NCBI GenBank assembly: GCA_016711215.1
Contig: JADJTL010000001.1
Coordinates: forward strand, 1,910 to 65,909
Direction of reading: 5' to 3'
Length of the DNA: 64,000 nt
From: Pseudomonadota bacterium
Lineage (GTDB): Bacteria; Myxococcota_A; Polyangia; GCA-2747355
In this document: in pieces, positions 27,635 through 39,609 of the stretch
Position numbering within the stretch: the stretch's first letter is position 1
Layout: every line of letters starts with the position of its first letter
Notes under the pieces: model-generated
What the model was told of the DNA's origin: nothing
What the model saw: the letters and a program-made list of their open reading frames with translations, nothing else
Database searches by the model: none
Position numbers and translations under genes: made by a program

Positions 27635-28315
27635 TCAGCGCTTCGGCTGGTAGAGCGCCTGGAGGTTGGCGCCGAGCAGACCCGCGTCGTAGCTGCGCTC
27701 GTCGATCAGGGGCAGCCCGCGGGCCTGCTGCTCGTCGACCAGGACGATCAGGCGCAGCTGCTCGGTGCGGGTCGAGATGCGATCGGCCGCGGCATCGTCG
27801 GTCAGCCAGCGGTAGCGGTCGAAGGCGCGGAGGTCCAGCGGGCCGGTGTAGCCACGCAGCGTCTTCTCGCGCTCGACGTTGAAGTACTGGGCGAAGTACG
27901 ACATCGCCAGCTCACGCACGCTGCGATACACGGGGTCGCGGTAGCGCAGGCCCGTGGTGTTGGACTTGGCGAGGGCGCCCCAGCAGCGGCCCTCGCGGAA
28001 GAGCGCCAGCAGGTGCTCGTCGTCGCGCCCGTTGGCCATCAGATCGAGCAGCAGCGGCTTGTGGCCGAGTCGTCGTAGCGCCGCGGCCGCGAAGAGCGCG
28101 CCGTCGAAGCAATGGGCGGTGCGCTCGCGGAGCACCCGCAAGGGGCAGCGGTAGAAGCTGTCGGGGCTGTAGCGCAGCGTCTCGAGCCAGGCCTGAATAG
28201 CGGGCGGGCTCGTCAGTCCCGCCATCAGCCGTCGCTCCGCCGCAGTCAGCGCCGCGTCGAAGGCCACGTCGGCTACCGATGGCTCCGAGGCGCGCGGCGG
28301 GCTGGAAGCGTGCAT
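27635..28315 (-). CDS. hypothetical protein, possible transglutaminase-like cysteine-protease fold
   Basis: Segment TAHCFDGALFAAAALRRLGHKP resembles the G-x-C-x-x-FA...R..G Cys motif of transglutaminase-like domains. The family call is weak. Confidence 0.4.
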   Translation of the reverse strand: MHASSPPRASEPSVADVAFDAALTAAERRLMAGLTSPPAIQAWLETLRYSPDSFYRCPLRVLRERTAHCFDGALFAAAALRRLGHKPLLLDLMANGRDDEHLLALFREGRCWGALAKSNTTGLRYRDPVYRSVRELAMSYFAQYFNVEREKTLRGYTGPLDLRAFDRYRWLTDDAAADRISTRTEQLRLIVLVDEQQARGLPLIDERSYDAGLLGANLQALYQPKR

Positions 28316-28371: not shown

Positions 28372-29436
28372 TCAGTCGAGTCGCGCCAGGACTGCCTCGG
28401 TCATCGCGCTGGTCCCCAGTGTGCCGCCGAGGTCGCGCGTGCGGGCACCCTCGTTGATCGCGCGCTCGACCGCTTGCTCGATGGCGCGCGCCTCGGCCTC
28501 CAGGCCGAGCGAGTGCCGCAGCAGCAGCGCCGCGCTGAGCATCGTACCGAGCGGGTTGGCCACGCCCTTGCCCGCGATGTCCGGCGCCGAGCCATGGATC
28601 GGCTCGTAGAGGCCACGGCGGCCCTCGCCGGTCGAAGCGCTGGGCAGCAGCCCCAGCGAGCCGCCGATCACCGCTGCCTCGTCCGTGAGGATGTCGCCGA
28701 ACATGTTCTCGGTGACGATCACGTCGAAGGCGGCCGGCTGCGTCACCAGCCGCATCGCCGCCGAGTCGACGAGTTGATGCTCGAGCTTGATCGCCGGGTA
28801 CTCGGCCGCGACCTCGATCGCGACCTGGCGCCAGAGCCGCGAGGACTCGAGCACGTTGGCCTTGTCGACGGAGGTGACGTGGCCGCGGCGCTGCCCGGCG
28901 AGCTGACAGGCGAGGCGGACGACGCGGCGAATCTCGACGTCGGTGTATTCGAGGGTGTCGACCGCGCGCTCGCTGCCGTCCTCGCGCCGCTCGCGCAGCC
29001 GCGGCTGGCCGAAGTAGAGGCCCCCCGTCAGCTCACGCACGACCAGCAGGTCGACGCCCTGCAACCGCTCTGCCTTCAGCGGCGAGGCGTCGGCCAGCGC
29101 TGGATAGACCCGTACCGGTCGGAGATTGGCATAGAGGCCCAGGGCCTTGCGGATCCCGAGCAGCCCCTGCTCCGGGCGCACGGGCGCGCGGGGGTCGTCC
29201 CACTTCGGGCCGCCGACCGCCCCGAGCAACACGGCATCGGCGCGCAGACAGGCCTCGACGGTGGCCGCAGGGAGCGGCCCTCCCGTGGCATCGATCGCCA
29301 CGCCGCCGATCTGCTGCTCGTCGTAGCGCAGCGCGTGGCCATGACGCTTGGCTACCGCGTCGAGGAGGCGCCGCGTCGCCGCCACGATCTCCGGTCCGAT
29401 GCCGTCGCCGCCCAAGAGTACGATCGTTGCGTCCAC
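28372..29436 (-). CDS. leuB: 3-isopropylmalate dehydrogenase
   Basis: 354 aa with [14 protein letters not shown]-terminus and NLFGDILSD-like motif. Confidence 0.9.
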
Positions 29437-29512
29437 CGCTTCCCTCCGTCAGTGCTGCCTCAGTGCTGCATTCGCACCGATGCGTCTTGGTGTGGCCTGG
29501 CCAGGCGGCGCC

Positions 29513-30085
29513 TCAGCTCTGCTGCTGGGCCTCGAAGGCGGCGATCTGCTCAGCATGGCCCAGCAGGTAGTCGAGCTGATCGATGCCGCGCAGCAGGCAG
29601 TCGCGCGCGAAGCGGTCGATCGGGAACTCCGTCGCGGGGCCTCCCGGCCAGCGCAGGTGCTGGGCCTCGAGGTCGATCGTCAGCGCCAGGTCGGGCTGAG
29701 CCTGCAGCAGCGCGACGAGCTGCCCGTGGAGCGCGGGCGTGACGGCGACCGGCAGCAGGCCGTTCTTCAGCGCGTTGTTGCGGAAGATATCCGCGAAGGA
29801 GGTCGAGACCACGGCGCGGAAGCCGGCCGCGATGAGCGCCCACGGCGCGTGCTCGCGCGAGGATCCGCAGCCGAAGTTATCGCCGGTCACGAGCACCTGC
29901 GCGCCCGCCGCCGCCGGCTGATTGAGGACGAAGGAGGGTTCCTTGCGCCAGTCGCAGAACAACGCCTCGCCGAGGCCGTCCTTGTCGGTGACCTTGAGGA
30001 AGCGCGCCGGAATGATCTGGTCGGTGTCGATGTTGTCGATCGGCAGCACGACGGCCCGCGCTGTGAGTGTCTTGAACTGCGCCAT
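29513..30085 (-). CDS. leuD: 3-isopropylmalate dehydratase small subunit
   Basis: 190 aa LeuD/aconitase swivel domain ([17 protein letters not shown]). Confidence 0.9.
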
Positions 30086-30086
30086 C

Positions 30087-31523
<1,437 letters not shown>

Positions 31524-31567
31524 GCGAAGTCTCCTCGGGAACCCGGCGGGTGGGCCCCCTGCCTGCG

Positions 31568-33238
<1,671 letters not shown>

Positions 33239-33354
33239 CGCTCACCCCCAGGGCGCTGGCCCTCGCCAGAGGCGCCCGCCTGCTGCGCGCTCCACCGGTG
33301 ACGCCGCGGCCGCGCTCGCTTGCTGCGCGCGCGGTCCGCGCGTGGGCGCTGGTG

Positions 33355-33903
33355 CTACGCCGCGCTCGAGGCCGCCAGCGGACGAGCCCCGCTGCCCGGC
33401 TCCACCGTGGCCAGCTCGGCGCTGCGGGTCATCGCCACCATGCCGCTGTTGACCATCTCGAGGATGCCGAAGGGCCGGAGCAGCGCGACGAGGCCGTCGA
33501 TCTTCTCCTGCTCGCCGGTGATCTCGACGATCAGCGCATCGGTGGCGATGTCGACCACGCGCGCGCGGAAGACCTTGGCGATCTCGAGGATCTCCGCGCG
33601 TTCGGTGGCGGCGGCCTTGACCTTGATCAGCGCCAGGTCGCGCGCGACCGAGGGAACGGCCGTGATGTCGCGCACGCGCAGGACATTGACCAGCTTGTAG
33701 AGATGCGCCTCGAGCCGCCGCGCCGTGTCGTCGTCGGCGCAGGTGATCATCGTCAGGCGCGAGACGCCCGGCTCGTGCGTGCGTCCGACCGTCAGCGACT
33801 CGATGTTGTAGGCACGGCGGCGAAAGAGCGAGACGACGCGGTTCAGCACGCCGGGCTTGTCTTCGACATAGGCGATGAAGGTACGGGAAATCGCGCGATC
33901 CAT
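33355..33903 (-). CDS. ilvN: acetolactate synthase small (regulatory) subunit
   Basis: 182 aa ACT domain (VEDKPGVLNRVVSLFRRRAYNIESLTVG). Confidence 0.85.
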   Translation of the reverse strand: MDRAISRTFIAYVEDKPGVLNRVVSLFRRRAYNIESLTVGRTHEPGVSRLTMITCADDDTARRLEAHLYKLVNVLRVRDITAVPSVARDLALIKVKAAATERAEILEIAKVFRARVVDIATDALIVEITGEQEKIDGLVALLRPFGILEMVNSGMVAMTRSAELATVEPGSGARPLAASSAA

Positions 33904-33905
33904 CG

Positions 33906-35609
33906 TTACACCTCCGAAGTCGGGCTGCGATGCGGGCGGCGGATCATCTTGTCCAGGTCCGCACCGGCCGGCACCATCGGGTAGACGCTGTCTTCCTTCT
34001 CGACGCGGAACTCGACCAGGAAGGTGCCCGGCGCCTTGCGTGCGGTCTCGATCGCGCCGGCCACCTGGTCACGCCGCGTCACCACCAGGCCCTGAAGCCC
34101 GTGGGCCTCGGCCAGCTTGACGAAGTCGGGGCTCTTCATCGGTGTCGCCGAGTAGCGGCGATCATAGAAGAACTCCTGCCACTGCCGCACCATCCCGAGG
34201 TAGCCGTTGTTGATCACGGCGATGTTGAGCTTGAGCTGCTCCTGGGCGCAGGTCGCGAGCTCGCACGCCGTCATCTGGAAGCCGCCGTCGCCGGCGATCG
34301 CCCAGATCTCCTCCTGGGGCTGCGCGAAGCGCGCGCCGATCGCTGCCGGCAGCGCGAAGCCCATCGTGCCCAGGCCGCCCGAGGTCAGCAGCTTGCGCGG
34401 GTAGTCGTGCTTGTAATACTGCGCCTCCCACATCTGATGCTGGCCGACGTCGGAGACCACCAAGGCCTTGCCCTCGGTCGCGCGCCAGAGATCGTGCATC
34501 ACGTGGGCGGCATAGAGGTGGCCGTCGTCGGGCAGCGCCTGGATGTCGCGCACGGCGGTCTCGCCCTTCAGCGTCGCGATGCGCGCCAGCCACTCGGCGC
34601 GGTCCTTATGCTCGAGCTGCGGCTGCAGCGCCAGCAGCGTGGTGCGCAGGTCGGCGACGATCGGCAGGTCGACCTTGACGTTCTTGTTGATCTCGGAGGC
34701 ATCGATGTCGATGTGGATCTTGCGCGCGTGTGGCGCGTAGGTCGCCAGCTTGCCGGTCACGCGATCGTCGAAGCGCATGCCGAGGGCGATCAGCAGATCG
34801 GCCTCCTGGATCGCCGTGTTGACCCAGGCCTCGCCGTGCATCCCCATCATGCCGAGGCTCAGCGCGTGGGTCGCCGGAAAGCCGCCCAGGCCGAGCAGCG
34901 TCAGGGCGACGGGCAGGTGGCCCGTCTCGGCGAAGCGCACGACCTCGGCGGTGGCGCCGGACTGGACCACGCCCTGGCCCGACAGGATCAGCGGGCGCTT
35001 GGCGTCATGGATCAGCTCCAGCGCCCGCGTCAGCGCGGCCTGCGGCACGGCGGCGGGCTCGCGATAGCCCGGCAGCTCGATGGGATTGTTATCCCAGGCG
35101 AACTCGGTCGAGGCCTGCTGCGCGTCCTTGGTGATGTCGACGACCACCGGCCCGGGACGTCCCGAGCGTGCGATGTAGAACGCCTCGCGCAGCGCGGGGG
35201 CGATCTCGTCGGCGCGGGTCACCAGGTAGTTATGCTTGGTGATCGGCAGCGTCACGCCGGTGAGGTCGGTCTCCTGGAAGCCGTCGGTTCCCAGCAGAAA
35301 GCCCGCGACCTGGCCGGTGATGCAGACGATCGGCGAGGAGTCCATCATCGCCGTGGCGATGCCCGTGACCAGGTTGAGCGCGCCCGGGCCCGAGGTGGCC
35401 ACCGCGACGCCGACCTTGCCCGAGGCGCGGGCGTAGCCGTCGGCCATGTGCGCGGCCCCTTGCTCGTGGCGCACCAGCACATGGCGCACGTCGTAGTCGA
35501 GCAAGGCGTCATAGGCCGGCATGATCGCCCCGCCGGGGTAGCCGAAGCAGACCTCCACGCCCTCGCGAGCGAGCACCTCCCAGATCACCTGGGCTCCCGT
35601 GCGTTGCAT
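33906..35609 (-). CDS. ilvB: acetolactate synthase large subunit
   Basis: TPP-enzyme motifs (GYPGGAIMP; GDGGFQMT). Start at MQRTGAQV with GGAGGAG-like RBS. The track N-terminal extension is ignored. Confidence 0.9.
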   Translation of the reverse strand: MQRTGAQVIWEVLAREGVEVCFGYPGGAIMPAYDALLDYDVRHVLVRHEQGAAHMADGYARASGKVGVAVATSGPGALNLVTGIATAMMDSSPIVCITGQVAGFLLGTDGFQETDLTGVTLPITKHNYLVTRADEIAPALREAFYIARSGRPGPVVVDITKDAQQASTEFAWDNNPIELPGYREPAAVPQAALTRALELIHDAKRPLILSGQGVVQSGATAEVVRFAETGHLPVALTLLGLGGFPATHALSLGMMGMHGEAWVNTAIQEADLLIALGMRFDDRVTGKLATYAPHARKIHIDIDASEINKNVKVDLPIVADLRTTLLALQPQLEHKDRAEWLARIATLKGETAVRDIQALPDDGHLYAAHVMHDLWRATEGKALVVSDVGQHQMWEAQYYKHDYPRKLLTSGGLGTMGFALPAAIGARFAQPQEEIWAIAGDGGFQMTACELATCAQEQLKLNIAVINNGYLGMVRQWQEFFYDRRYSATPMKSPDFVKLAEAHGLQGLVVTRRDQVAGAIETARKAPGTFLVEFRVEKEDSVYPMVPAGADLDKMIRRPHRSPTSEV

Positions 35610-35677
35610 GATGTTCTCCTCCTTGCGGCTGATGACCCCGCTGGGGGCCGGACCTAGCACGAACCCGCTAGGTGTTG

Positions 35678-35715
35678 AAAACAAAAACCCCCGCAGCCAG
35701 TCTTGGTTGCGGGGG
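35678..35715 (-). terminator. intrinsic terminator / attenuator hairpin upstream of ilvB
   Basis: Minus-strand RNA reads CCCCCGCAaccaagacuggcUGCGGGGG followed by UUUUUGUUUUC. It lies between the leader-peptide stop and the ilvB start. Confidence 0.6.
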
Positions 35716-35737
35716 CGAAGGCTGACTCCGAGTTACG

Positions 35738-35842
35738 CTAAACCCAGGGAGGCCCACACCCCGCGCCTACACCGACGAGCAGTACGAGAGCGAGGACGGG
35801 CAGACCAAGGAACACGGGCGCCTGTGACGGCCGCTGAAACAT
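35738..35842 (-). CDS. candidate Leu/Val-rich attenuation leader peptide
   Basis: MFQRPSQAPVFLGLPVLALVLLVGVGAGCGPPWV has 8 Leu/Val in a 10-residue run. Stop is ~25 nt before the terminator. No strong SD, and upstream in-frame starts exist. Confidence 0.4.
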   Translation of the reverse strand: MFQRPSQAPVFLGLPVLALVLLVGVGAGCGPPWV

Positions 35843-36000
35843 CGGCTGCAACGGCGCCCGGGACGCGGGCGTGCAGGACGAGGGAGTGCGGGACACGGAG
35901 ACGCGACGGTTCAGCATAGCGGCCGGAGTGTGCGGCGAGGGCAAGGGGTGAGTCAAGAAGAATCGCCCTTCCCTGGCTAGCGGTTCAGCCCGTTCATCAC

Positions 36001-36057
36001 TTGTTCTATTGTTGTCTATTGTTGTCTATTGCTGGTGGTGTTGTCTATTGCTGGTGG
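36001..36057. repeat. AT-rich direct repeats TTGT(C/T)TATTG x4 interleaved with CTGGTGG(TG) x2
   Basis: Direct reading. Located in the presumptive promoter region of the ilv-leu leader, overlapping the 3' end of the upstream ORF. Confidence 0.8.
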
Positions 36058-36859
36058 ACCTGCCGCGCAGCCGGCGCGCGAGCGCTCCGCCTGTGCCGAA
36101 TCCGAAGCCACCCAGGAGTGCAGAGGAAAAGACGACAGCCTCAAGATTGCGCCTTCCGATATCAAGGAAGTCCGTGGACGGTGGGGAAAGACCCAGCTGG
36201 GTCATGGCGGTAACCGTATCGCGGCCCAAACTCTGTACGCCACCGCGGGCTTGTTCCGCCGCTCTGCTCAGGAGCCCACTGCTAGAGGTCCAGGGAAGCG
36301 TCTTCTCCTGCTCGACGACCACGGAATAGGCGCCTCTGGCGCTCGTCGCTACCTTCGTCCAAATGGCTACGCCAACCTGGCCCAACCCCTCCCAGCCTTT
36401 GAAGGCTGATGGCGTCCGATGCGGCGAGGGGAATAGAGCGGTCGGTCCCACCAGAAGGCCTTCCTTGCCCGCAAGCGAGGTTGGGCTGGGAACCAAGTCC
36501 GTCCGCGCCCCGACCTCTGTCCCGGCGACATATGCCGCGGCAGTGACCCCAAGGACGCCCGCACCGACAAGTGAAGTGGGTATTGCAGCAGCGGGCGCGT
36601 ACCCGGCGAGGGAGTGGCTCGCAGTAATCACCGCCGCTTCGAGCGGTCGATCGACCACGTAGTTTCGCGCGGGCGCGTTGATTCCGAGGACCCCTAACGC
36701 GCCAACAGCGCCCACCAAAAGCGCGTTGCGGGTCGATCGTCCAACGCGCCTTACGATCGATGTCCCATGGGGGGTTGCCCAAGCAGGCTGCGCAAGGGCG
36801 CCCAGGCTAAGGCTGGCAAAGAGCAGAAGCGCAATCGAAGGCGTGCGGCGCAGCATCAT
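36026..36859 (-). CDS. hypothetical secreted protein
   Basis: MMLRRTPSIALLLFASLSLGALAQPAWA signal peptide. Gly/Ala/Val-rich. No family recognised. Confidence 0.5.
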   Translation of the reverse strand: MMLRRTPSIALLLFASLSLGALAQPAWATPHGTSIVRRVGRSTRNALLVGAVGALGVLGINAPARNYVVDRPLEAAVITASHSLAGYAPAAAIPTSLVGAGVLGVTAAAYVAGTEVGARTDLVPSPTSLAGKEGLLVGPTALFPSPHRTPSAFKGWEGLGQVGVAIWTKVATSARGAYSVVVEQEKTLPWTSSSGLLSRAAEQARGGVQSLGRDTVTAMTQLGLSPPSTDFLDIGRRNLEAVVFSSALLGGFGFGTGGALARRLRGRSTSNRQHHQQ

Positions 36860-36955
36860 GGGACGTTCCTTTCGGCGGTCTGGCGAGGGGCCTATGCATA
36901 GCATGTACCACGGCGTGCGCAGCTCGCTGCCGCAGGTGCGGCGGCGGCCGGCTCG

Positions 36956-38637
36956 CTATTTCGGTGGGTTGCGGCCGCGGGGGCGGGATGGGGGGCGGCG
37001 GCCGGGCTGGCCGGGGTGGCTCGTTTTCGACGAGGGCAGGGGCTCAGGCTGCCTTTTAGGGCGAGGTCCTCGCGTGGCCTCGCCCTCAGCGGCCTCGCCC
37101 TCAGCGCCCGTGCTGCTGGTCTTCGCGCCGGCAAAGAGGCTACAGGCGGGGTTGTGGGTCTCTTCGTGGTGGGCAAAGCCGAGGCTGCGGAGCAGCTCGA
37201 CGAAGGCGCGGCGGGCGGCGGCGTCGAGCTGCAGGCCGAGCAGCACCCGGCCGTAGTCGGCGCCGTGGTTGCGGTAGTGGAAGAGGCTGATGTTCCAGCG
37301 GCCGCCCATCTCGCGCAACAGGCCGAGCAGGGCGCCGCGGCGCTCGGGGAACTCGACCCGCCAGAGGGTCTCGTCGCGCAGCCCAGGGGCGTGGCCACCG
37401 ACCATGTAGCGAATGTGCAGCTTGGCGGTCTCGTTGTCGGTCAGATCGACGACGCCGTAGCCCTCGGCGACGAGGCGGGCCGCCAGCGCCTCGCGCTCGG
37501 TCCGACCCTCGCTCAGCTCGACGCCGACGAAGACCTGAGCCCGGGTCGCGTCGTGGTAGCGGTAGTTGAACTCGGTGACGCTGCGCTCGCCGATCGCGCG
37601 GCAGAAGGCGAGGAAGCTGCCCGGCCGTTCGGGGATGCTGACGGCGAAGATCGCCTCCCGCTCCTCACCGAGCTCGGCGCGCTCGGCGACGTGGCGCAGC
37701 CGGTCGAAGTTCATGTTGGCGCCGCTCTCGATCGCTACCAGCGCGGCGCCGCGCAGGCGCTCGCGCGCGACGTATTTCTTCAGCCCGCGAGGGCCAACGC
37801 GCCAGCCGGCTCGGCGATGGTGCGGGTGTCCTCGAAGAGATCCTTGATCGCGCCGCAGGTCTCGTCCGTGCTCACCAGCAGCACCTCGTCCACCACGCGC
37901 CGCGCGAGGCGGAAGGTCTCGCGGCCGACCTGTCGGACGGCGACGCCGTCGGCAAAGGGGCCGACGCGGTCGAGCGTGACCCGCCTGCCGGCGGCGAGGG
38001 CGCGCGAGAGGGTCGGGGCGTCGTCGGGCTCGACGCCGATCACGCGCGTCTCCGGGCGTACGAACTTGATATAGGCGCCGACGCCGGCGATCAGCCCGCC
38101 GCCGCCCACGGGCACGAAGACCGCGTGCAGCGGGCCGCTGTGCTGGCGCAACAGCTCCATGCCGATGGTGCCCTGGCCGGCGATCACGTCGAGGTCGTCG
38201 AAGGGATGCACCAGGGTCAGCCCGCGCGCCTGGGCCAGCCGCTGCGCATGCGCGCCAGCCTCGTCGAAGCTGTCGCCCTCGAGCACGATCGTGGCGCCGA
38301 GCGCCTGCACCGCCTGTACCTTGATCGTCGCCGTGGTGCGCGGCATCACGATCAGGGCCTCGAGCCCGAGCTCGCGCGCGGCCAGCGCGACCCCTTGGGC
38401 GTGGTTGCCGGCGGAGGCGGCGATGACGCCGCGCCGGCGTTGCGCGTCGTTGAGCTGGACGATCTTGTTGTAGGCGCCGCGGAGCTTGAAGGAGAAGACC
38501 TGCTGCAGGTCCTCGCGCTTGATCAAGACGCGGTTGCCGAGGCGGCGTGAGAGGCGCGGCGCGGGGCTCAGCGGGCTCTCGCTGGCGACCTCGTAGACGC
38601 GGGCGCGGAGGATGCGTTCGATCATTCGATTGAGCAT
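36956..38637 (-). pseudogene. ilvA: threonine dehydratase (biosynthetic, IlvA) with apparent single-base frameshift near 37786
   Basis: PLP domain (38637..37780, ends ...TIAEPAGALALAG*) and regulatory ACT-like half (from 37786, LKKYVARERLRGAALVAIESGANMNF...) are in different frames. Together they match IlvA end to end. The DNA reads gcgggcTGAagaaa where gcgggcCTGaagaaa is expected. A ~60-aa low-complexity C-terminal tail is dubious. Confidence 0.75.
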
Positions 38638-38745
38638 CGGTGGAGCATACGGCGCGCGCCGCTGAGCGCGCCAGCGAGCTGTGGCGCGGCAGGCGCCGGG
38701 CGCGATCGGTCGCGCCATCGCTGGACGGGCTGCTCGAAGGGGCTG

Positions 38746-39609
38746 CTAGGCGGGGGGCGGCGTGGCGCGTGCCGGCGAGCGCAGCGCCAGATCGCGGCGC
38801 GGCGCCTGGCGGCGGAAGCGCACGTGCAGGTGATCGGCGTGACCGCGCCAATGACGCACCAGGCCGCGGCGGCGACCCGGGTACTCGAGGAGGCTCGCTA
38901 GCGTCTCCGCGGCGTAGCCTTGCGCGCGGGCGTGGACGTAGAGCGCGCGCTGCAGGCGGCGGTCGAGGAAGATCACCTGCACGTCGCCGGTGTCGATCAG
39001 GCGCAGCAGCAGAAACCAGGTGCGCTCGAGGTCGAGGGTGCGTGGTGTCGCGCGAGCGTAGCCGAGCGTCTCGCGCTTGAGCACGACGCGGATGTCGACG
39101 TCCTGGCCGGTGTCGTGCGAGAGGTGCGGCCGCAGTCGTCCGCCCCAGCGACGGCTGAGGTCGTGGACCCAGATCGGCGAGGCCTCGGGGAAGTGCTCGT
39201 GGTAGGCGGTCATCACCTCGCTCAGGCGCTGCACCGTCAGCGCCGTGCCCCAGGCCTGATCGGGCGTCCGCACCTTCAGGCCCGGGCGGTCGGTGAGCTG
39301 GACCAGCCCATGGATGCGGCGATAGCGGCGTCGGTGGCGCGAGCGCCGCTGGGCGGTGCCGCGGGTCGCGAGCGCGCGCCTTGCTCGAGTCCGCGTGGCG
39401 CTGCGCGTCGAGGGCGTGAGGGCGGCTGAGGTCGCGACGGAGGGGGCCCCGAAGCTCGCGGCCGGTGCGGCGTCGAGCAGCACCGTGGACACCGTCGAGG
39501 CGAGGATGGTCGGGTCGGCGCCGGCCGCGCTGAGCCCGCCGAGCAGCGTGGCGGCGGCGAAGCTAGACAGAAACGAGTAACTTGGCTTACTGACCATGCA
39601 TCGGATCAT
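38746..39609 (-). CDS. penicillin-insensitive murein endopeptidase (MepA / peptidase M74)-like
   Basis: Signal peptide plus zinc-ligand motifs HLSHDTGQDVDIR and GHADHLHVRF. Confidence 0.6.
   Translation of the reverse strand: MIRCMVSKPSYSFLSSFAAATLLGGLSAAGADPTILASTVSTVLLDAAPAASFGAPSVATSAALTPSTRSATRTRARRALATRGTAQRRSRHRRRYRRIHGLVQLTDRPGLKVRTPDQAWGTALTVQRLSEVMTAYHEHFPEASPIWVHDLSRRWGGRLRPHLSHDTGQDVDIRVVLKRETLGYARATPRTLDLERTWFLLLRLIDTGDVQVIFLDRRLQRALYVHARAQGYAAETLASLLEYPGRRRGLVRHWRGHADHLHVRFRRQAPRRDLALRSPARATPPPA

Follow-up and report, generated by a model that had tools for sequence, protein, structure and literature searches.

What controls transcription of ilvB-ilvN-leuA-leuC-leuD-leuB, a branched-chain amino-acid operon which occupies positions 28372..35609 on the minus strand of a 64,000-nucleotide stretch of contig JADJTL010000001.1 (the whole stretch is hereafter the window), is the question raised by a small Leu/Val-rich open reading frame (ORF) and a GC-rich hairpin that stand directly upstream of ilvB. 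We judge, with a probability of about 0.85, that the element formed by these two features is a ribosome-mediated leader-peptide transcription attenuator of this branched-chain amino-acid operon, a reading derived from sequence. A first-pass annotation of the same DNA had proposed an attenuator at this position and an ilvBN-leuACDB super-operon behind it; the operon is borne out by the curated NCBIfam equivalog cut-offs, which all six genes exceed, and the attenuator reading is strengthened by an antiterminator found in the leader and by the presence of leader and hairpin in related organisms.

The leader ORF and its competing hairpins

The 34-aa ORF MFQRPSQAPVFLGLPVLALVLLVGVGAGCGPPWV, which had been noted for a run in which eight of ten codons specify Leu or Val, is present on the minus strand as described, reading from an ATG at 35842 to the TAG at 35740-35738. 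Its frame remains open further upstream as far as an ATG at 35917, giving an ORF of 59 codons plus TAG (MLNRRVSVSRTPSSCTPASRAPLQPMFQRPSQAPVFLGLPVLALVLLVGVGAGCGPPWV, 35738..35917, minus strand) that is placed by this in-frame ATG and by spacing seen across the family described below, and the 34-aa ORF is probably only the C-terminal part of it. The densest stretch, VLALVLLVGV, with its eight Leu/Val residues in ten, is encoded by the putative regulatory codons GTC CTC GCT CTC GTA CTG CTC GTC GGT GTA (35768..35797, minus strand). The last 25 leader codons include six for Leu and six for Val, and Ile codons are absent from the window leader. Three of the six Val codons (GTA twice and GTT) and one of the six Leu codons (CTT) are of rare types, as in the operon genes GTA and GTT account for 4% and 1% of Val codons and CTT for 0.4% of Leu codons.

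The hairpin that follows is an intrinsic terminator by its fold and its conservation (35677..35717, minus strand), with a stem formed by 35717-35704 and 35699-35688, an AGAC loop and the T-tract TTTTTGTTTTC at 35687-35677. Its GC-rich 12-nt arms are 92% complementary, the predicted energy is -22.8 kcal/mol, and the stem runs into U5GU4. The gap between the stop codon and the stem is short, as the first-pass annotation had it, and measures 20-22 nt where about 25 nt had been given; the distance onward to ilvB, put at about 65 nt, measures 67 nt from the T-tract to the ATG at 35609. A consensus scan overlooked this terminator, which has a mismatch in its stem; the 64-kb window holds no other strong intrinsic terminator. 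Leu/Val-dense clusters of 10 codons are likewise infrequent, with only 10 in the window over all six frames. We estimate the chance of finding such a cluster within 100 nt upstream of the sole strong terminator, on the same strand, at about 0.01, and it is unlikely that the two adjoin on one strand directly 5' of ilvB by chance.

RNA folding had been suggested as a check for an alternative antiterminator pairing, and such a pairing was found. The last codons of the leader ORF contain a G-rich segment, GGGGTGTGGGCC (35751..35762, minus strand), identified by pairing and alignment and termed region 2, which encodes G-C-G-P and resembles the 3' arm of the terminator, so that it is able to pair with the terminator 5' arm. 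Region 2 is the 5' strand of an imperfect predicted antiterminator hairpin of 24 bp (35709..35766, minus strand, -32.6 kcal/mol) that would sequester CGCCCCCGC (35717-35709) of the terminator 5' arm and that holds the UAG stop in its apical loop, 10 nt past region 2. The end of the Leu/Val block lies 5-12 nt from the start of region 2. When the transcript is folded as it would be before the terminator 3' arm exists, the antiterminator is the minimum-free-energy fold (-32.6 vs -22.8 kcal/mol). In the minimum-free-energy fold of the full-length leader, region 2 pairs with upstream leader sequence and the terminator is retained; the upstream part of this pairing is not conserved, and other members of the family have in its place a small local hairpin just 5' of region 2. 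Apart from a demonstrable anti-antiterminator, the leader therefore contains the sequence features by which the attenuator class is recognized, namely a Leu/Val codon run, a Rho-independent terminator between leader ORF and structural gene, a mutually exclusive antiterminator on the terminator 5' arm, and a stop-codon and stall geometry that agrees with the generally known size of the ribosome footprint.

The position of the leader start is predicted from its promoter. A TTGACT hexamer (35951..35956, minus strand) is the putative -35 box, taken as such from a TTGAC-to-ATG spacing that is family-wide, and it is followed after an 18-nt spacer by CACACT (35927..35932, minus strand), a weak -10-like hexamer by the Escherichia coli consensus that is also found in one of the closest relatives (L085). 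In the window exactly 39 nt separate TTGACT from the ATG at 35917, and in 84 of 95 family members TTGAC lies 36-42 nt 5' of an in-frame ATG, with a mode of 39 (44 cases). No Shine-Dalgarno sequence was seen between the TTGAC box and the leader ATG in the family, and none before ATG 35917 in the window, where that ATG sits 9 nt past the CACACT hexamer. Since a spacer of 17-18 nt and a -10 box of 6 nt leave 9-10 nt before the ATG, the 5' untranslated region would be about 0-5 nt long. Judging from these spacings, the leader is most likely the 59-aa ORF (35917-35738), carried on a leaderless or nearly leaderless mRNA, and ATG 35842 is internal to it.

In the mechanism that we propose, transcription from TTGACT-N18-CACACT would begin at or a few nucleotides before ATG 35917, and a ribosome would translate the 59-aa leader ORF behind the moving RNA polymerase. 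With ample charged Leu- and Val-tRNA, this ribosome would pass the Leu/Val block (35797-35768) and reach the stop codon at 35740, where it would cover the inner half of the antiterminator (35766-35709) and part its outer strands. With the antiterminator blocked, the terminator (35717-35688) and its U-tract would form, and most transcripts would stop before ilvB. If Leu or Val were scarce, the ribosome would stall within 35797-35774, among the rare GTA and CTT codons of the leader, which would leave region 2 (35762-35751) free to capture the emerging terminator 5' arm; the terminator would then be unable to form, and the polymerase would enter ilvBN-leuACDB. Amino-acid-dependent termination at the ilvB leader is thus what the proposed mechanism predicts.

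The element in related genomes and metagenomes

The presence or absence of the leader ORF and the hairpin in close relatives with the same operon had been named in advance as a check on the attenuator, and both are present in three contigs (L084-L086) whose IlvB is at least 90% identical to that of the window, as well as in more distant Myxococcota and in Sorangium cellulosum. All four loci, the window included, have an in-frame ORF of 52-59 aa that opens at an upstream ATG, with a variable N-terminus and a conserved C-terminal end (...LVLLVGVGAGCGPPWV); over the relatives as a whole, the in-frame leader ORFs span 32-59 aa and show the same combination of a variable N-terminus and a conserved end. 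The window and L084-L086 are near-identical over the Leu/Val run, the terminator and the sequence onward to ilvB, and everything upstream is unalignable. BLAST homology begins abruptly at about 35794-35788, within the leader ORF, an edge that suggests rapid sequence turnover or a recombination boundary at the attenuator. The promoter and the N-terminal half of the leader fall on the unalignable side, even for these relatives with IlvB identity of 90% or more.

A wider comparison covered 86 loci anchored on IlvB, with genome members chosen through the IlvB protein and not through the RNA. A scan of genome contigs with IlvB, in which relatives of 66-74% identity were among the matches listed, yielded 11 family members, and the same layout 5' of ilvB was found at 14 further Polyangia-like Myxococcota genome loci and in S. 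cellulosum. The Myxococcota members of the 86 loci carry terminators of the type GCCCCCGCA...TGCGGGGGC-T5-7 upstream of ilvB, each of them preceded by a small ORF with a run of Val, Leu or Ile (V/L/I), for example MRTERLNSAQLVGLEVLVLVLGDTDGCGPPWV, ...SLVLSLVVVVGLLPLISSGCGPPT or ...SVVVVGEIVVLGLLISSGAAAV, and the region 2 consensus GGGTGCGG lies near the end of every leader ORF. The ilvBN genes are fused to leuA, with or without ilvC, at all 12 genome loci checked. Folding was tested in 15 genome members on a segment beginning 36 nt ahead of the stop codon and ending with the terminator 5' arm. In all 15 the minimum-free-energy fold has most of the 5' arm paired to sequence lying upstream, and an antiterminator-type fold beats the terminator (-24 to -41 vs -15 to -30 kcal/mol); in eight of them, when the upstream part was shuffled 300 times, 297 or more of the shuffles were beaten by the antiterminator fold.

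The family was extended to metagenomes with a pattern built from region 2 and the terminator alone (GGGTGYG-N21-51-GCCCNCGCA-N8-20-CGGGGGNTTT), which matched at least 120 stretches, 100 of those listed having at least 400 nt downstream. Among these 100, an ilvB homologue starts within 200 nt on the same strand in 67 and lies 0.8-2.5 kb away in 15; about ten of the 18 that have no ilvB are evident false positives without a V/L/I ORF. The element is thereby found on about 100 metagenome contigs, nearly always just 5' of ilvB or of ilvD-ilvB. In those of the distant cases that were translated, the intervening gene proved to be ilvD, followed by ilvB (L090, L094, L098, L105, L126, L143, L177, L193 and L195), or a short gene of 250-270 aa with weak similarity to ketol-acid reductoisomerase (L130, L145 and L198). 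As the attenuator stands before ilvD or this reductoisomerase-like gene as well as before ilvB, the regulon of the family varies within branched-chain amino-acid synthesis.

Two properties of the family bear on how the leader is used. In 91 distinct members, those whose stop codon is offset by 16 or 18 nt, V/L/I account for 60-98% of residues at codons -9 to -20 from the stop, for at most 18% at codons -1 to -7, and for about 15-25% still further 5', and across the family the stop codon falls 13-21 nt past the start of region 2. The motif GGGTGCGG is itself read in two frames: in 58 members, with peptides ending in ...GCGPPx, the stop lies 18 nt past the start of the motif, and in 33 members (...GAAAx or ...GAVAG) the distance is 16 nt. 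The constraint thus acts on the RNA and not on the peptide, and a conserved C-terminal peptide with a function of its own is excluded. In an alignment of 103 sequences the antiterminator helix is 93.4% paired. Columns 15:69 show four G-C to A-U double changes, a count of double-changed cells that none of 500 shuffles reach. The positions of the 5' arm are antiterminator-paired in 97-100% of sequences, but in the terminator three of these positions lack a partner in roughly a quarter of cases.

Several points weigh against the attenuator. The case for attenuation was made wholly in silico, from sequences and predicted folds. At the 5' end, the CACACT hexamer is weak and the consensus promoter scan made no call for the leader promoter, 59 aa is long for a leader of the attenuator class, and it is possible that the internal ATG at 35842 is the real leader start. 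At the level of the RNA, a conserved anti-antiterminator (1:2) pairing could not be established in the folds of the window and its relatives. The energy of the window antiterminator is only modestly better than that of shuffles in which the arm is kept (z = -1.3), the z-scores within the window lineage being -1.2 to -1.7, and it is matched by seven of 500 mononucleotide shuffles, as GC-rich sequence folds strongly in any case; the pairing in this lineage is also shifted in register relative to most of the family. Finally, the search pattern itself fixed most of the paired positions in the metagenome set, so that the covariation rests on one pair, and the four double changes in that pair come from two types of leader peptide and count as about two independent lineages.

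Other readings of the locus and its neighborhood

The same features could be read in other ways. The leader peptide has a basic N-terminus, a hydrophobic core and a ...VGAG-C sequence resembling a lipobox, and its ORF is open in all relatives, a gene caller having predicted a 75-aa product in Sorangium; it might accordingly be a functional secreted or lipoprotein-like peptide, with the hairpin as its own terminator and no coupling to ilvB. This is scarcely plausible, as the motif is read either as GCGPPx or as GAAAx, one third of the family lacks the lipobox Cys, the N-terminal half varies even between the closest relatives, and a mature peptide of six residues would be implausible, whereas conservation follows complementarity to the terminator 5' arm and the element is tied to an ilvB or ilvD immediately downstream. 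The lipoprotein or signal-peptide reading of the leader ORF was rejected on the ground that the conserved motif is read in two frames. We regard it as extremely unlikely, too, that the hairpin terminates transcription of the upstream genes (ilvA and the ORF at 36904-36026) and that the Leu/Val ORF is a chance frame, perhaps antisense to an acidic frame. Open frames are indeed common at about 70% GC, where by our estimate 30 codons pass without a stop with a chance of 0.56, and the upstream ORF is on the same strand as the hairpin. Between the two, however, lie the conserved TTGAC box and its in-frame ATG, the V/L/I enrichment is specific to position, no GC3 (GC content at third codon positions) coding signal is seen upstream of the leader, and the upstream genes vary among relatives while leader and terminator stay with ilvB.

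A terminator and antiterminator pair is by itself silent on what tips the balance between its two forms, and the ilv-leu operon of Bacillus subtilis is generally known to be under T-box control, so that the conserved RNA could also be a switch that binds a ligand, a tRNA or a protein (a T-box-like element, or ppGpp- or protein-dependent antitermination) in which the ORF is incidental. An Rfam search had been proposed as a check for leader motifs, and it did not find one: at E ≤ 10 the cmscan of 35000-37000 turned up no more than three matches, all at chance level and due to the terminator hairpin (mir-298, anti-hemB and Spot_42), and six other family members gave nothing at gathering level, Leu_leader and T-box included. 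Outside region 2 and the terminator the RNA is variable and has no conserved aptamer-sized core; conservation is seen instead in an ORF whose V/L/I block keeps a constant distance and whose stop codon comes 13-21 nt past the start of region 2, which makes such a switch very unlikely. The remaining alternative concerns AT-rich repeats upstream of the promoter, for which an Lrp- or LysR-type regulator had been suggested; such a regulator could be the main control here, and the attenuator would then be inactive or of secondary importance. The repeats depart significantly from randomness, are phased at 10 bp, and stand about 45-100 nt 5' of the -35 box, a typical position for an activator. Against this, they are absent from every related locus, including the relatives with IlvB identity of at least 90%, they have the appearance of recent slippage duplications in that an exact 19-nt unit occurs twice, and no regulator gene adjoins them, and we consider a dominant role for them most improbable.

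The repeat array itself (36001..36057, minus strand; located by repeat search and GC profile) has the structure [CACCAGC-AATAGACAAC] x2, AATAGACAAC, AATAGAACAA. The first-pass annotation had counted four direct repeats of TTGTCTATTG, which is AATAGACAAC in a shifted register; the array is real and consists of three exact copies (36049-40, 36030-21 and 36020-11) and one imperfect copy, the variant AATAGAACAA at 36010-01. By chance 0.24 copies are expected, and none of 100 shuffles reach three; Tandem Repeats Finder (TRF) describes the array as period 10 with 4.7 copies. The AT-rich patch that had been noticed is equally real, with a GC content of 0.42-0.45 at 35970-36059 against about 0.68 around it. 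The repeat array overlaps the 3' end of a weakly supported upstream ORF. The proposal of Lrp or LysR operators found no support, since none of the 206 related loci carries the repeats and the closest relatives have unrelated sequence at this position; many other family members have an A-tract just 5' of the -35 box instead. The only match of the consensus promoter scan, the sigma-70-like TAGACA-18-AACAAT, lies inside the repeats. From this distribution they are probably not part of the conserved switch, and they may represent a protein site peculiar to this lineage, an additional promoter or simple slippage products.

The genes of the operon, all assigned by NCBIfam on the minus strand, are ilvB (35609-33906), ilvN (33903-33355), leuA (33238-31568), leuC (31523-30087), leuD (30085-29513) and leuB (29436-28372). 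By inspection, ilvB has a Shine-Dalgarno sequence, AAGGAGGAG, at 35616..35624 (minus strand). Between the terminator and this ribosome-binding site are two small hairpins (35672-35653 and 35649-35634, minus strand) that are preserved in L084-L086 through G-U/G-C changes; roles in mRNA stability or in the control of translation are possibilities for them. The operon lacks ilvC, ilvN being followed directly by leuA as it also is in L084-L086, and no ketol-acid reductoisomerase was found in the whole 64-kb window; the gene order in one relative, L081, is ilvBN-ilvC-leuA. Directly 3' of leuB is a 226-aa ORF (27635-28315, minus strand) with no NCBIfam or Pfam match. The IlvB of the window is identical to MBK8479578.1, the next matches being metagenomic proteins at 77% and Sorangium species at 75% identity, and its best genome matches among those listed are in Polyangiaceae, Kofleriaceae and other Myxococcota metagenome-assembled genomes (MAGs), with Vicinamibacteria (Acidobacteriota) MAGs at 69-70%. 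From these matches the DNA probably belongs to a Polyangia-like myxobacterium.

Upstream of the leader, the threonine dehydratase gene ilvA (37109-38637, minus strand) is broken at about 37787 across two frames, the PALP domain lying in an ORF at 37780-38718 and the C-terminal regulatory domains in an ORF at 36956-38851. Compared with the intact ilvA of L084 the gene lacks 1 nt, a deletion that explains the split, which represents either an assembly error or a pseudogene. In the stretch of about 1 kb from ilvA to the leader promoter (35957-36955), every frame has a GC3 of at most 0.8, compared with 0.93 for ilvB. This stretch includes a 292-aa ORF (36904-36026, minus strand) that has low GC3 and no Pfam or NCBIfam family match, and it was rejected as a candidate regulator; only a signal-peptide-like N-terminus is common to it and the short hypothetical ORFs at the same place in L084-L086. 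The upstream region of these relatives has in addition a Uma2-family gene and another hypothetical gene. In S. cellulosum (CP012670.1), where the element occupies L207:603-930, the leader ORF (L207:646-873) is annotated as a 75-aa gene, and a 144-aa ORF (L207:975-1409) with its own Shine-Dalgarno sequence and no Pfam match lies between the attenuator and ilvB. At five Acidobacteriota ilvB loci (L036, L053, L044, L055 and L078) there is, about 110-150 nt 5' of ilvB, a different small ORF with runs of Val, for example MNNLYLHRIRVVVLGVGVFIPSPVWREPAS, followed by a terminator CCCACCGGCC...GGCCAGGTGGG-TTTT, an arrangement that, from its sequence, looks like a separate type of ilvB attenuator.

Relationship to known attenuators

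The attenuator reading implies that classical branched-chain leader-peptide attenuation is at work, or is at least preserved at the sequence level, in Polyangia-type Myxococcota. Our searches of the literature (on attenuation or leaderless translation in delta-proteobacteria, Myxococcus xanthus and Sorangium) returned nothing relevant and no description of attenuation in Myxococcota, and an earlier prediction of delta-proteobacterial ilv attenuators is possible. That the element represents an undescribed attenuator RNA family spanning Myxococcota, with a leaderless leader of 30-90 aa and perhaps with an added repeat-mediated control or second promoter in the window, is a proposal that we make tentatively and regard as rather doubtful; a leaderless leader would mean that the sensing ribosome needs to load at the very 5' end. 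The signature of the element (TTGAC, an ATG 39 nt on, a V/L/I block, GGGTGCGG, a stop codon, GCCCCCGCA...CGGGGG and a T-run) could guide metagenome annotation of ilvB and ilvD operons and help to avoid calling the leader ORF a hypothetical protein. S. cellulosum is a cultivable industrial producer of natural products, in which relief of attenuation could make more branched-chain precursors available.

Among the closest known systems are the ilvBN (ivbL), ilvGMEDA (ilvL) and leu (leuL) operons of E. coli and Salmonella, which are controlled by leader-peptide attenuators with leaders of 28-32 aa. The element shares with them a short ORF with clustered Val and Leu (or Ile) codons for multivalent sensing of branched-chain amino acids, and a Rho-independent terminator that lies before the first biosynthetic gene and has a competing antiterminator. 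It differs in that the window element has no sequence or Rfam-model similarity to these leaders, in the length of the leader (59 aa here, with a family median of 43), in having no Shine-Dalgarno sequence and a start that is apparently at or next to the 5' end of the transcript, and in that one leader would govern a fused ilvBN-leuACDB operon; a clear 1:2 anti-antiterminator was also not found. In B. subtilis, the ilvBHC-leuABCD operon is regulated by a T-box that senses uncharged tRNA-Leu directly. That operon resembles the present one in joining ilv and leu genes under a 5' switch that acts by premature termination, though no T-box was detected here by Rfam cmscan of 35000-37000.

Another close system is the ilvBNC operon of Corynebacterium glutamicum, in which a single nucleotide separates the leader start codon from the transcription start and the Ile, Val and Leu codons of the leader include CUU and GUA as control codons (PMC11857589), and for which a three-hairpin model of IlvL has the terminator and the antiterminator share a strand (PMC11857589, PMC10272879). 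As in that system, ilvB is the gene controlled, the start would be near-leaderless, and rare-type CUU and GUA codons occur in the leader, but IlvL is a peptide of 15 aa (MTIIRLVVVTARRLP) that is unrelated by its published sequence, belongs to another phylum and precedes an operon without leu genes. A Leu-rich attenuator peptide is described for the ilv-leu operon of Staphylococcus aureus (PMC5794164). Set beside these systems, the element amounts to a new family within a familiar kind of attenuator, with a mechanism that is ordinary and would not surprise a specialist.

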